Shown one piece after another: positions 14,295 to 46,950 of a stretch of 64,000 nt of DNA. The translations under genes were made by a program, and so were the position numbers. The notes beneath the pieces are model-generated. The model made no database searches and had not been told where the DNA came from. It saw only the letters and a program-made list of their open reading frames with translations. The number at the start of each line of letters is the position of its first letter. Within the stretch, counting starts at the first letter, position 1. Origin of the DNA: Escherichia phage Ec_YwIITB1; the sequence record PQ356294.1; one strand, written 5' to 3'.

Positions 14295-14349
14295 ATTAAA
14301 AAAGGCCCAACCAAAAAGGAAGGGCCAAAACTATAGACTAAAGGTCACA

Positions 14350-14517
14350 CTATAGCAAAAGTTGTGTTTCATTTAATTGTTCTTCCGAACTTTCTGAAAC
14401 TGGTAGTTCTTTAATGTAATTATAACAAGGCCCAGGATGTACAGGACCTTTGTCTGTTTCAACAACCAATGCAGAATCGATTGGAGTTTTACAGACAACA
14501 CAAATCTTATCTGACAT
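14350..14517 (-). CDS. Small Cys-containing protein (uvsY.-2-like)
   Basis: ORF 14350..14580; start placed at internal ATG (MSDKICVVCK...) which has AAGGAG and a TATAAATA motif upstream. Confidence 0.55.
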   Translation of the reverse strand: MSDKICVVCKTPIDSALVVETDKGPVHPGPCYNYIKELPVSESSEEQLNETQLLL

Positions 14518-14543
14518 GATTGTCTCCTTTTGAATATAGTAAT

Positions 14544-31367: not shown

Positions 31368-31700
31368 TTATTTTACTACTTTCCAATGCTTCATGTCAAG
31401 TTTACCAACTTTTTTCATCTTCTCAATTAAGCGTTCTGCGCGTTGGCGAGCTGTAACATAATGCCATTCACCTAATTCATTTTGTTCAATTTTTCCAACG
31501 ATTACTGTATTCAATTCATAAATCCAACCAGTAAAGAAATTATGAACTTGAATTGTAAAGGTGAAATCTGTCCCCATACCTTCTGTTGTTTCTACTTCAA
31601 TGATATCACCTTCAACTGCCATTAAGAACCACATAGTTTCATCATATTTACCATTGAAGCATTTAGTTTTAACTGCAGCGTTCAGATTAATCGTTTTCAT
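31368..31700 (-). CDS. Hypothetical protein
   Basis: 110-aa ORF with early promoter-like element upstream. Confidence 0.55.
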   Translation of the reverse strand: MKTINLNAAVKTKCFNGKYDETMWFLMAVEGDIIEVETTEGMGTDFTFTIQVHNFFTGWIYELNTVIVGKIEQNELGEWHYVTARQRAERLIEKMKKVGKLDMKHWKVVK

Positions 31701-31727
31701 TTTATTCTCCTTTGTTTGTGTAAGATA

Positions 31728-31757
31728 ATACTATCACAAAGGAACCATACTGTAAAC
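31728..31757 (-). promoter_or_regulatory. Early promoter-like element (-35 GTTTAC, 18 nt, -10 TAGTAT)
   Basis: Upstream of ORF 31368..31700. Confidence 0.45.
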
Positions 31758-31810
31758 AACTTTGTGCAGTCTTTGGAAAATAAAAAAGGACTCCCGAAGG
31801 AGTCCTCAAC

Positions 31811-31987
31811 TTATGCTTTCTGCTTACCAAAACGAGAAGCATCATCTCGAAGAACCGCACGTGCTCGGCGCATGATCTTCTCAACAGTTTGATTGATACG
31901 AGAGTTCGACCCACGCTTGTAACCAGCGCGTTTAGAATCACCAACTTTCTTTTCAACTGCTTTCTTTGCTTTAGCTTGTTTTGCCAT
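31811..31987 (-). CDS. Small Lys/Arg-rich protein (possible nucleic-acid-binding)
   Basis: ORF 31811..32029; start placed at ATG of MAKQAKAKKAVEKK...; 58 aa, highly basic. Confidence 0.45.
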   Translation of the reverse strand: MAKQAKAKKAVEKKVGDSKRAGYKRGSNSRINQTVEKIMRRARAVLRDDASRFGKQKA

Positions 31988-32340
31988 TATAAATTCTCTT
32001 TTAAATGAAAATGCAGGACTTATTGACATTGCCTGCTAAAGCCCTCAAGGGGGACATAGGTTTTTGAATATTTAACGACCAGGATAACCATAAACCCGTC
32101 AACATACCTTATAGCTCTTATCTGTTGCACACCGTTAGCTTAAAGGTTCCGGGTTCGATTTCTCGAGGATAAGATATATACTGATGGATATATAGGCCTT
32201 GAGGCGTACTCCCGATTAGCCATCACCTCGGGGTAGCATGCACTTGCCGCTATAAAATAACATTCAAGAGGTACACCGTAAAACAAAGTTCGACGGCTCC
32301 TCGATTTTAGCTCACACTAAGGCAGTGAATCTCCAATAAA

Positions 32341-32589
32341 TTACTTCAGTGTTACCACAAAGTGACGAACTGCTTTTCGTGCAGCAGAAGCCAGTGGCTT
32401 AGCATATTTAAGTTCATCTTTTTCCTGAAGCTCAGCAGCTAATGCAGTTTGAGCAGGATTCAGATGTTTGAAATAACGCAGGATTTCAAGAGCTTCGGCT
32501 TCAACATCAATAGATGCGCCATAGTTTTCGTGACCATTATTCCATGCGTTTCGTTGCAGTTCAAGAGCGTGTTGTAATTGTTTAATCAT
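32341..32589 (-). CDS. rIII: RIII lysis inhibition accessory protein
   Basis: 82-aa ORF matching T4 RIII (MIKQLQHALELQRNAWNNGHENYG...). Confidence 0.85.
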   Translation of the reverse strand: MIKQLQHALELQRNAWNNGHENYGASIDVEAEALEILRYFKHLNPAQTALAAELQEKDELKYAKPLASAARKAVRHFVVTLK

Positions 32590-32715
32590 TTAAAAATTCT
32601 CGTTAGAGATTAAAACTCGGTAGTCACGTTCTTCTGAATTTCATCTTCTTTCGACAGATCTCTCAGTTGTAGACTACCACATAGAATTGAAACCCAATTC
32701 ATATTATTATTTATA

Positions 32716-33051
32716 TCACTTATAAAGACATGGAATAGCTTTATAGTGACAGGTAACGAATTTTTGTTTAATTTCTTTTGGCTGCTTAAGACCCAGAGCT
32801 ACAAAAGGATGCGGAACGTTTCGAATTTGACCAACTGGAAGAGAAGTCAAATCACCAACTTCACAGAAACCTTCAGGAACATCAGGACCAACGGAGTGAA
32901 CTACACACAGTTCAGGAACTTCACCTTGAACACGTTTACCGATAATAAGTCCTGATTCTGTAACTTCTTCATCACCAGCCTGTGCAGGTTCAGAAACTAA
33001 AATAACATATTCACCGACAGCACGAATTGGTAGCTGTTGTACTTCAGACAT
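32716..33051 (-). CDS. 31: Head assembly co-chaperonin gp31 (GroES-like)
   Basis: 111-aa ORF matching T4 gp31. Confidence 0.95.
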
Positions 33052-33416: not shown

Positions 33417-33653
33417 TTATTTACCTATTACAGTTTTAATATGGGTTGTTCCACGTTCTTTAAGAGTGGAAAGCAATTTTTGGCATTTTTCTAAATCAGA
33501 TTTCCAACTATACGGTCTATCAATACAAACCCATTCTGACTTATAATACTGCTTCCATTTAGAGAAAAAATACTTCTTATACTCTACAGCAAATGAAATA
33601 TTCTCGTTAGAATAAGAACTAATTGCTGTGAGCTGTACCAAACGAAATTTCAT
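33417..33653 (-). CDS. Hypothetical protein (31.2-like)
   Basis: 78-aa ORF. Confidence 0.55.
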   Translation of the reverse strand: MKFRLVQLTAISSYSNENISFAVEYKKYFFSKWKQYYKSEWVCIDRPYSWKSDLEKCQKLLSTLKERGTTHIKTVIGK

Positions 33654-34234
33654 TATTCACCACAGAATTCGTTGATGTTTTCCCAGTTTAACTTATTCAA
33701 GTTTTTCTTAGGAACATTAAACACTTCAATACCCGCATTTCGCAGAATATCATCCCAGCCAGGTTTATTTTTATCGTATGTTTCACAATAAACCAGCTTT
33801 TTAATACCAGATTGAGCTATCGCTTTTGCACAATCTGGGCATGGAGAAAGTGTTACATACATAGTAGCACCTTCAATTGAAGAACCATTTCGTGCAGCAA
33901 ACAAAATTGCATTTAGTTCAGCATGAATTTCATTTTTAGACGACCATTCAGAGTGCGCGCTACGGTGTTCTTTCGCCAAGACAAAACGATCAGTTGAACC
34001 AAATGATACGCATTCAGGCTTATGACCTTGAATGATAGTATGTTTAGGCTTATTCAACAACCAACCTTGCTCAGCAGCATAATCACAGCAATTCACACCA
34101 CCTGCAGGTGAACCATTATATCCGGTAGAAATAATACGTCCATTCTTTTCAATTACTGCTCCTACCTTCCAGGAGCAACATTTTGATTCTTGCGATACTA
34201 AATATGCAATTTGAAGTACTGTACTCGCTTTCAT
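33653..34234 (-). CDS. cd: dCMP deaminase
   Basis: 193-aa ORF; zinc-binding HAELNAI and PCxxC motifs; matches T4 Cd. Confidence 0.95.
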   Translation of the reverse strand: MKASTVLQIAYLVSQESKCCSWKVGAVIEKNGRIISTGYNGSPAGGVNCCDYAAEQGWLLNKPKHTIIQGHKPECVSFGSTDRFVLAKEHRSAHSEWSSKNEIHAELNAILFAARNGSSIEGATMYVTLSPCPDCAKAIAQSGIKKLVYCETYDKNKPGWDDILRNAGIEVFNVPKKNLNKLNWENINEFCGE

Positions 34235-45232: not shown

Positions 45233-46257
<1,025 letters not shown>

Positions 46258-46510: not shown

Positions 46511-46535
46511 TTTATTCTCCTTAGTTGATAGGGTA

Positions 46536-46565
46536 ATAGTATCACACTACTACCCTTCTGTAAAC
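46536..46565 (-). promoter_or_regulatory. Early promoter-like element (-35 GTTTAC, 18 nt, -10 TACTAT)
   Basis: Upstream of ORF 46268..46510. Confidence 0.45.
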
Positions 46566-46950
46566 TACTTTTTGAAAGTTTTTCGCAAAAGTTCAATGAT
46601 TTCATCTACATTGTTTTCATCAACAATGCAGTGAATTTTTGTTACGCCAGAAACCTTGTCTTCGACTTCATCTTCTTCGGAAGTCGGTTCTTTATACTCA
46701 CGAAAACAATGAAATTCGTCTTCGCAAATTTCTAAAAGTCTATCTTTGAGGTAAAAATGCTTTCCGTTAGCGCACAAATGATTTCGGTTACATAATCAAA
46801 GCCATCTAAATTTGATATTGATTTAACTTCAAACCAACCACCATTTTCTTGAATGATGCCGACCATATTAGTATTTGATGAACTAATATCAATGAAAGAT
46901 TTAATACGATGTATCAATAAGTCTTGGAACAAGTTCATACTTTTTGCCAA
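46565..46950 (-). CDS. Hypothetical protein; two overlapping ORFs (46732..46950 and 46565..46777) that may be one gene split by a frameshift
   Basis: Adjacent ORFs overlap by 46 nt in different frames; downstream ORF has no ATG start. Confidence 0.4.

Follow-up and report, generated by a model that had tools for sequence, protein, structure and literature searches.

The DNA analysed here is a stretch of 64,000 nt from Escherichia phage Ec_YwIITB1 (PQ356294.1), and this whole 64-kb stretch is called the window below. The phage is T4-like and belongs to the genus Tequatrovirus; over positions 31700-32700 of the window, the best matches are 98-99% identical. Our subject is the spacer between the genes rIII and 30.9, of which 155 nt (32104-32258) almost certainly form a functional structured RNA of the minus strand, as judged by comparison with homologous sequences. 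The genes of the locus are as follows:

31368-31700, minus strand: gene 30.8
31811-31987, minus strand: gene 30.9, coding for a very basic protein of 58 amino acids and lying 3' of the spacer
32341-32589, minus strand: rIII, 82 amino acids, directly 5' of the spacer on the transcribed strand
32716-33051, minus strand: gp31
33653-34234, minus strand: cd

Because rIII, 30.9, 30.8 and gp31 all lie on the minus strand, the spacer is located downstream of rIII and 5' of 30.9, and not upstream of rIII as a preliminary description of this DNA had it. The same description pointed to an unusually long (about 310 bp) region free of open reading frames (ORFs) in an otherwise gene-dense genome, and this is borne out: a crude greedy tiling of the window with ORFs leaves gaps with a median of 8 nt, and all other ORF-free gaps measure 225 nt or less, so that the rIII-30.9 spacer is the longest ORF-free stretch of the 64 kb. 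The next longest gaps in this tiling are found at 14295-14519 (225 nt), 46511-46731 (221 nt) and 45439-45643 (205 nt). The length of the spacer is 311 nt as originally flagged (32030-32340) and 353 nt (31988-32340) if the ATG annotated for 30.9 in T4 (31987) is used. No ORF of at least 60 codons overlaps 32030-32340 on either strand, as had been stated; the tiny ORFs, given as 15-34 codons only, reach 48 (TTG), 36 (GTG) and 34 (ATG) codons. The mechanically derived ORF of 30.9 extends to an upstream ATG at 32029 (72 amino acids), and some GenBank records annotate this form. The ATG at 31987 (58 amino acids) is the one used by T4 and most relatives; it is conserved across genera and is preceded by a purine-rich, GAG-containing stretch. 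No Pfam family was found for the product of gene 30.9.

The element is composed of a closing helix (P1), which joins its two ends, a four-way junction without unpaired bases and three arms. Its limits are those of a covariance model, R1, which was built from a MAFFT alignment of 23 sequences. R1 has one match in the 64-kb window (32104-32258, minus strand, 181.9 bits, E ~1e-40; the model was calibrated quickly and its E-values are rough). The parts of the element are listed below, with the pairs that show compensatory changes in brackets for the helices of arms 2 and 3:

32104-32258, minus strand: structured RNA element, 155 nt, within the covariance-model limits
32249-32255, minus strand: 5' strand of P1 (UUAUAGC), which pairs with 32109-32115 and closes the module
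32109-32115, minus strand: 3' strand of P1 (GCUAUAA)
32195-32248, minus strand: arm 1, consisting of a GGC/GCC helix, an internal loop and the P2 hairpin
32246-32248 with 32195-32197, minus strand: GGC/GCC helix of arm 1, 3 bp, invariant
32237-32245 opposite 32198-32204, minus strand: conserved internal loop of arm 1, AAGUGCAU(G) opposite CCUCAAG
32204-32237, minus strand: P2, a long hairpin with two conserved bulges
32175-32194, minus strand: arm 2, the AU-rich hairpin P3, UAUAUAU-CCAUCA-GUAUAUA (4/7 pairs)
32116-32174, minus strand: arm 3, in which P4 encloses P5 and P6 at an invariant three-way junction
32168-32174 with 32116-32122, minus strand: P4, UCUUAUC with GAUAAGA (5/7 pairs)
32155-32166, minus strand: P5, a hairpin with a GAAA loop (4/4 pairs)
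32150-32154 with 32129-32134, minus strand: P6, ACCCG with CGGUGU (2/5 pairs)
32122-32139, minus strand: the most conserved tract, GCUAACGGUGUGCAACAG, covering the end of the P6 loop, the 3' strand of P6 and the joining strand to P4

Three stem-loops had been proposed for the region before, and two of them are real. The AT-rich one (GATATATAC...ATATATAG) is helix P3 (32175-32194); the CCCTCAAGGGGG hairpin (32042-32053) lies outside the main element and shows compensatory variation in relatives. The third pairing, GGCCTTGAGG...CCTCGGGG, is unsupported, because the G-U pairs it needs exist on the plus strand only, whereas by comparison with relatives the RNA belongs to the minus strand. The bases concerned pair otherwise (GCC-GGC and UCGGG-CCCGA).

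Homologues were gathered by exact-pattern scans of viral and metagenome contigs and aligned with MAFFT. Three alignments were used: A3 and A4 are plain MAFFT alignments, the latter of 23 sequences, and A7 contains 28 distinct sequences, including those of a second subfamily, fitted to the model. RNAalifold, applied to the minus-strand MAFFT alignment, yields 42 pairs, 18 of which show compensatory double changes. Standard pairs occupy 98.7% of the pair cells in A4 and compensatory changes are seen in 21 of its 44 pairs, values reached by none of 500 shuffles; sliding the 3' partners by 1-3 columns lowers the pairing to 27-43% of cells. With A7 the share of standard pairs is again 98.7%, the number of compensatory pairs rises to 31 of 44, the covariation score is 0.438 (0.157 for shuffles) and the structure is better than 500/500 shuffles on every measure. 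Every helix except the 3-bp GGC/GCC helix contains a compensatory change: all five modelled pairs of P1 do (AU/UA/GC/CG), as do nine of the ten pairs of lower P2, and in the second subfamily CCCG/CGG of P6 becomes CCUG/CAG.

The strand is assigned by the wobble pairs. Read on the opposite strand, an A-C cell becomes a G-U pair, and G-U cells far exceed A-C cells in the helices (43 to 2, and 62 to 2 in the enlarged set), which places the RNA on the minus strand; 20 of the 62 G-U cells fall in 12 internal pairs. As to consensus folding energy, the minus strand has -36.4 kcal/mol and the plus strand -29.6 kcal/mol. On these two measures an RNA of the plus strand, antisense to the genes, was rejected. 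Most members have a P5 loop of GNRA type (GAAA, GUAA) on the minus strand. The element is also better conserved than most of its neighbourhood, where only the 30.9 gene surpasses it. Identities to the window in four phages of other genera are:

JD18: element 92%, rIII gene 79%, gp31 gene 71%
PG7: element 94%, rIII gene 75%, gp31 gene 72%
PS2: element 87%, rIII gene 77%, gp31 gene 68%
Cronus: element 83%, rIII gene 74%, gp31 gene 74%

While the helices change, much of the unpaired sequence does not. The tract GCUAACGGUGUGCAACAG is invariant or nearly so in 28/28 homologues, the distant subfamily included, and GGCAAG.GCAUG and CCU..GGCC of arm 1 are invariant in the 28 homologues. Across both subfamilies the invariant sequences are GGCAAG.GCAUG, CCU..GGCCUA, ACC.GGA.CC and GCUAAC.GUGUGCAAC, together with GCUAACGGUGUGCAAC. 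About 45 invariant unpaired bases are kept across genera and at two loci. Judged from these alignments, both the structure and the loop sequence of the element are under purifying selection. Of the options in the preliminary description (a small RNA, a long structured leader or the remnant of a deleted gene), a structured RNA is thereby strongly supported, with about 155 nt heavily covarying and conserved above the flanking genes, and the structure is kept in relatives. Within the window we found neither a second copy nor an antisense partner of the invariant tracts, nor complementarity of the element to another site. Two proposals for tertiary contacts were rejected. Kissing between two conserved GUGCA loops is contradicted by variants (U to G in copy L013 and in phage EcS1, U to A in Cronus) which on inspection break the pairing without compensation, and a search of the unpaired columns of A7 for extra tertiary pairs gave only signals that track the subfamily split.

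A query with the core of the element retrieves 403 phage records, 395 of them nearly full length. Their host genera are mainly Klebsiella (158) and Escherichia (129), and also Shigella, Enterobacter, Yersinia, Salmonella, Citrobacter, Serratia and Erwinia; Shigella phage sb2 and vB_Eco_F25 are among the carriers. None of the 403 phage records carries an RNA annotation at the element; in some, genes for hypothetical proteins, which we consider spurious, overlie it, and one GenBank record has a "terminator" inside the element which covers part of arm 1 (the P2 hairpin). No match was found in 5,426 Escherichia coli genomes or 72,556 plasmids, and a scan of GTDB genomes with one exact 17-base pattern gave chance matches only, so a host origin was rejected.

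The copies fall into two subfamilies. Subfamily 1 is located between rIII and 30.9 and is present in Tequatrovirus, Jiaodavirus, Karamvirus, Roskildevirus, Muldoonvirus and phage EcS1; the block occupies the same position in Jiaodavirus JD18, Karamvirus PG7, Muldoonvirus PS2 and Roskildevirus Cronus. In Cronus, PG7 and copy L256 it starts 0-15 nt past the stop codon. Relative to T4, the window has an additional block of about 152 bp, and the boundaries of this indel fall 2-4 nt or less from the outer ends of P1. An alignment with T4 and T2 had been suggested at the outset; the aligned locus was compared, and both phages lack the element, which is therefore dispensable. Presence and absence alternate within several lineages, and T4-identical rIII genes occur both with and without the element, which is found in 15/40 rIII loci from IMG/VR. 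Two types of absence are seen: one group has an unrelated filler of about 55 nt in its place and another shows a clean absence.

Subfamily 2 lies downstream of uvsY/uvsY.-2 in Slopekvirus (phiEap-3, K41P2), Pseudotevenvirus (GAP161) and Yersinia phage JC221. Its copies are divergent and full-length, with R1 scores of 76-90 bits (E 1e-15 to 1e-20). The locus is a convergent intergenic region before uvsW.1/uvsW; the element is on the same strand as uvsY/uvsY.-2 and nothing is encoded downstream on that strand. In Slopekvirus, a stem-loop with flanking A- and U-runs 3' of the element is read as a bidirectional terminator. The GenBank coding sequences that overlie the element at the uvsY locus are probably spurious. 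In both loci the element is sense to the upstream genes and is found once per genome. T4 lacks it at both, its uvsY.-2-uvsW gap being 55 nt. The element is all that the rIII and uvsY loci have in common, for which reason co-transfer of flanking sequence was rejected, and on this comparison the element is a portable module.

Some further observations concern these copies. In Klebsiella phage vB_KpnM_17-11 (L279, MW239157.1) the element is split, with its 5' and 3' halves on opposite strands (716-825 on the plus and 869-986 on the minus strand), which indicates an inversion or an assembly error. The uvsY-side locus (L278 500-1330 in JC221, L280 1654-1860 in phiEap-3) is poor in ORFs over about 800 nt in JC221 and about 370 nt in Slopekvirus. 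Between the element and the terminator, JC221 and phiEap-3 share a further, apparently conserved block of about 130 nt, which could be a second structured domain.

The remaining features of the spacer and its surroundings are:

32312-32328, minus strand: hairpin X1, UCACUGCCUUAGUGUGA, right after the rIII stop codon and outside the element
32290-32304, minus strand: hairpin UCGA-GGAGCCG-UCGA with GGAG in its loop, read from the sequence
32077-32100, minus strand: hairpin M, GACGGG-UUUAUGGUUAU-CCUGGUC, with the conserved loop GGUUAUC
32042-32053, minus strand: hairpin CCC-UUGA-GGG, within the motif GU.CCC-(4-nt loop)-GGG.CUUG
31786-31807: strong intrinsic terminator after 30.9
32715-32708: T4 late-promoter motif TATAAATA, upstream of rIII

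Covariation in three of these hairpins (X1, M and the GU.CCC...GGG.CUUG motif) was judged by eye only. A form related to X1, UCGCUACCUUAGUGCGR, occurs in relatives at the rIII locus and beside the JC221 copy, and X1 appears to covary (UCA-CUG/UAG..UGA against UCG-CUA/UAG..CGA). Its 5' half (UUCACUGCC...CUAA) resembles the repeat of type I-F CRISPR (clustered regularly interspaced short palindromic repeats); the stem of that repeat is not kept, and the likeness is probably due to chance. The GGAG of the hairpin at 32290-32304 is presumably a target motif of the RegB endoribonuclease. Hairpin M is followed by CGUUAAAU and is also found in T4. Its place relative to the element changes between genera: Tequatrovirus, PG7 and Cronus have it on the 3' side, JD18 and PS2 on the 5' side. 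The GU.CCC-loop-GGG.CUUG motif is located 3' of the element in the rIII loci of several genera and in the uvsY locus of Slopekvirus (L280 1651-1668), with compensatory variants in PS2 (CCUC/GAGG) and Cronus (GCC/GGC), and is a possible marker of a processing site or of the 3' end of an RNA. From its sequence, the spacer looks as if it were built from shuffled small RNA modules. Compared with T4 and all its close relatives, the window has a private deletion of 44 bp at about 32284-32286 (context 32276-32294), which removes a hairpin, AAUGAUU-UGCG-AAUCAUU, and then AUAGUUUUAAG. When the deletion junction was compared with the phage collection, the best eight matches were all split in two, spanning 104 bp and not 61.

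Concerning transcription, a consensus scan of both strands gave no sigma-70-like promoter in the interval between rIII and 30.9, and the sigma70-like hexamers reported earlier for the region do not amount to one. T4-type promoter motifs (late, MotA-box middle and early GTTTAC) are absent from the minus strand of the same interval, where the sole motif of this type is a 7-nt late-like TATAAAT on the plus strand (31988-31994). The M motif holds TTGACG, but its spacing to any -10 box is wrong. On the two scans, a promoter inside the spacer was rejected. An intrinsic terminator (a G+C-rich hairpin with a U tract) was likewise not found inside the spacer. We infer that rIII, the element and 30.9 form a single transcription unit. 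A MotA-box middle-promoter motif is present upstream of gene 31, and the element would be transcribed within an mRNA driven by the late promoter before rIII and by earlier promoters upstream of gene 31. At 31772-31855 (minus strand) there is a sub-threshold Rfam match to the Rhizobiales small RNA Atu_C8, with 31.4 bits where the gathering score is 50. The terminator hairpin after 30.9 gives rise to this match, which does not denote membership of that family.

The covariance-model search against Rfam that had been proposed for the region was run, and the element matches no family of Rfam 15 (4,227 families). There is no gathering-level match inside the window, none at E<=10 within the element (searched over 31700-32700 and on 32095-32268 alone) and none at E<=1 in the JC221, JD18 and PG7 loci. 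ARAGORN finds no tRNA or tmRNA gene in the window or in five related loci. A tRNA-like reading, in which GGTTCGATT / GGUUCGAUU of the plus strand resembled a T-loop, was rejected on this result; the segment concerned is the variable hairpin P5. Mimicry of 16S rRNA helix 27 (GGGAGUAC-GCCUCAAGG against 16S 885-903) was rejected as well: its score is reached by 4/200 shuffles, shared k-mers are at chance level and the segment is not conserved in the second subfamily. A description of the element was not found in full-text searches of the literature. Judged by these searches, the element is a previously undescribed RNA family with no known relative.

The joint explanation that we favour, on balance, is that the element is a portable, self-folding and autonomous RNA which acts through its conserved core, with partner binding as the foremost candidate activity and self-cleavage as a possible one. 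The parts of this explanation differ in strength. That the element acts autonomously and not as a gene-specific cis-regulator is probable, because two unrelated gene contexts contain the module, one of them with nothing downstream on its strand, and because T4 has a near-identical 30.9 without the element. Partner binding as its activity is a more tentative proposal, made because the invariant bases sit in loops and junctions while the helices vary freely; varying helices with fixed loop and junction bases are the pattern of RNAs whose compact tertiary fold houses a binding pocket or an active site. The RNA would fold into such a compact tertiary structure, its conserved core would bind a protein or a small ligand that is the same in all enterobacterial hosts, and the element would serve as a decoy- or aptamer-like accessory RNA. 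It is possible, and again somewhat short of likely, that it is the founding member of a new functional RNA class in T-even-type phages: either a new ribozyme, or an aptamer or decoy for a host factor or for a defence-signalling molecule common to Enterobacterales.

Several points weigh against the reading of the element as an autonomous, partner-binding RNA. The lone window sequence folds no better than shuffled sequences (z = -0.89), so the case is wholly comparative. The homologues are related, the shuffle statistics ignore phylogeny and A7 is model-fitted; the MAFFT-based A3 and A4 yield the same helices as A7. The GGC/GCC helix and most of P6 never vary, so these are inferred and not proven. 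Partner binding is guessed at from the way in which the bases are conserved. Finally, a selfish cassette, or one that is merely tolerated, would be equally compatible with the clean presence or absence and with the two loci.

The alternative that survives best, although it is unlikely, is an RNA-processing signal, be it a new class of self-cleaving ribozyme or a signal of another kind. It would cut the polycistronic transcript after the upstream gene and thereby define where the rIII or uvsY.-2 message ends and where the RNA that follows begins. Small ribozymes typically have this size, such a closing stem and invariant internal-loop and junction bases with covarying helices, and they are often found in intergenic regions of phages; a four-way junction free of unpaired bases with conserved loops on two arms resembles the natural hairpin ribozyme. 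The context-independent position, always sense to the upstream genes and as little as 0-15 nt past the stop codon in the three copies named above, also agrees with it. However, no Rfam 15 ribozyme family matches, even at E<=10 on the element alone; cores of the hammerhead, hairpin and twister types were not recognised by eye, no cleavage site can be named, and 155 nt exceeds most self-cleaving classes.

A long structured leader had also been considered in the preliminary description. As a cis-regulatory leader, the element would control the translation of 30.9, or read-through into it, in the manner of a riboswitch or a protein-binding operator. In the window it does lie 117 nt 5' of the start of 30.9 on the same transcript, the closing P1 and the conserved junction bases are aptamer-like (with the covarying helices, 31/44 pairs compensatory, and the invariant junction bases that an aptamer domain would have), and the very basic 58-amino-acid protein could bind RNA. 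This reading is nevertheless improbable, weakened by the copies at the 3' end of the uvsY operon, which have no same-strand downstream gene and lie in a convergent region before a terminator, and by T4, which has a 99.4% identical 30.9 and lacks the element. The distance to 30.9 varies from about 90 to 175 nt with differing hairpins in between, and the order relative to M flips between genera. The position of a riboswitch in a 5' untranslated region together with a competing expression platform was not found, no alternative pairing was recognised in the element, and Rfam gives no riboswitch match.

About equally improbable is a passive stabiliser, a compact fold in the untranslated tail, which would protect the upstream message by stopping 3'-to-5' exonucleases or by preventing Rho from loading. 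The element does always follow the last or next-to-last gene of its unit, in untranslated RNA, and its neighbours are small conserved hairpins that resemble mRNA punctuation. Yet a roadblock needs stable helices and not some 45 invariant unpaired bases, the simple hairpins nearby already serve this purpose, and the stability predicted from the single sequence is unremarkable.

A cassette acting at the DNA level or a selfish mobile one (a recombination or insertion module, or a structure in single-stranded DNA) without any RNA function is less probable still. Its patchy occurrence within lineages, the two unrelated loci, the breakpoints at the inverted-repeat-like ends of P1 and the split copy with one inverted half in a single Klebsiella phage would suit such a cassette. 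Against it, each genome has a single copy, the element is not accompanied by a gene for a transposase or an endonuclease, and target duplication is not seen consistently. Seven helices, strand-specific G-U pairs and GNRA-type loops point to selection on RNA, with G-T pairs in single-stranded DNA still conceivable, and compensatory evolution over a long term favours function over recent spread.

The reading frames inside the element speak against a coding function. An AUG ORF of 27 codons, preceded by GAGGUG and spanned in the window by the 48-codon TTG ORF, is intact only in most of the closely related copies. It is reduced to 13-14 codons in the PS2-type and L013 copies (with a frame shift in L013) and lies in another frame in EcS1, and the second subfamily lacks its AUG; in total it is truncated, frame-shifted or absent in six lineages. 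A reading frame for a small protein was thus not found conserved across the homologues. The homologues tolerate indels of 1-2 nt and their substitutions track helix partners and not codon positions; GAGGUG, moreover, directly abuts the AUG with zero spacing. The element is therefore neither a protein gene nor a remnant of one: a small protein gene below the ORF cut-off, which would have undone the RNA interpretation had relatives encoded it, was not found in them, and the remnant of a deleted gene proposed earlier is rejected by the compensatory changes, the frame-breaking indels and the high conservation. Both together have a negligible probability.

The element is of interest beyond this phage. 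T-even phages serve phage molecular biology as its reference, and the catalogue of their non-coding content, with its tRNAs, rnaC/rnaD, introns and regulatory hairpins, is assumed to be complete for the most part. The element adds a large, well supported structured RNA in about 400 sequenced Straboviridae, which include many therapeutic-candidate phages of E. coli, Klebsiella, Shigella and Enterobacter. If it founds a new functional RNA class, be it as a ribozyme or as an aptamer or decoy, an RNA-only accessory function would exist in the most studied group of phages and would have been missed because T4 lacks the element. Natural knock-outs (T4, T2 and relatives within several genera) and the movement between loci make the function directly testable. 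Should the element be catalytic, ligand-binding or a decoy for a host factor, it would represent a new RNA class and a new layer of phage-host interaction; should it be mere mRNA punctuation, it would still be needed for correct annotation. The novelty is that of the RNA family, which has no known relative; its mechanism may or may not be of a new kind.

Among known systems that are close in kind, rnaC and rnaD of T4 (species 1 and 2 RNAs) are, like the element, small structured RNAs of T-even phages. They measure about 120-140 nt and their function has never been established. They differ from the element in that they lie in the tRNA cluster and are annotated in T4, whereas the element is located in an mRNA spacer and is absent from T4. 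Homology between them was rejected: with filters off, R1 gives 1.5 bits at best over 70.7-72.7 kb of T4 (the tRNA/rnaC/rnaD region), with scores of about 0-1.5 bits across that region. The orphan "motif" families of Rfam, several of which are phage-borne, are likewise conserved intergenic sequences with compensatory changes and invariant loop or junction bases; the element differs from them in matching none of the 4,227 families.

The hairpin ribozyme and the SAM-I riboswitch share with the element a closing helix, a four-way junction and conserved internal-loop or junction bases on adjoining arms. Unlike them, the element also occurs without a downstream gene. Its words UCUUAUC...ACCCGG.AACC...GGUG.GCAA...AGAUAAGAG resemble the SAM-I core, a likeness that has no model support. 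A SAM-I-like core was rejected, as neither the hairpin nor the SAM models give a match and the helix order differs; enterobacterial phages are not known to use SAM-I.

The PeSL (promoter-early stem-loop) cassettes of T4-type phages consist of a simple stem-loop and an early promoter (PMC2839356, PMC4122927). The element differs from these by its seven helices; no promoter consensus was found in or beside it, and no stem-loop followed by a sigma-70 or T4 early promoter is present at the element. It resembles them in that both are short conserved intergenic modules tied to the insertion, deletion or replacement of neighbouring DNA (PMC2839356, PMC4122927). By analogy, recombination of the PeSL kind may be the process by which the element is gained, lost and moved between loci.

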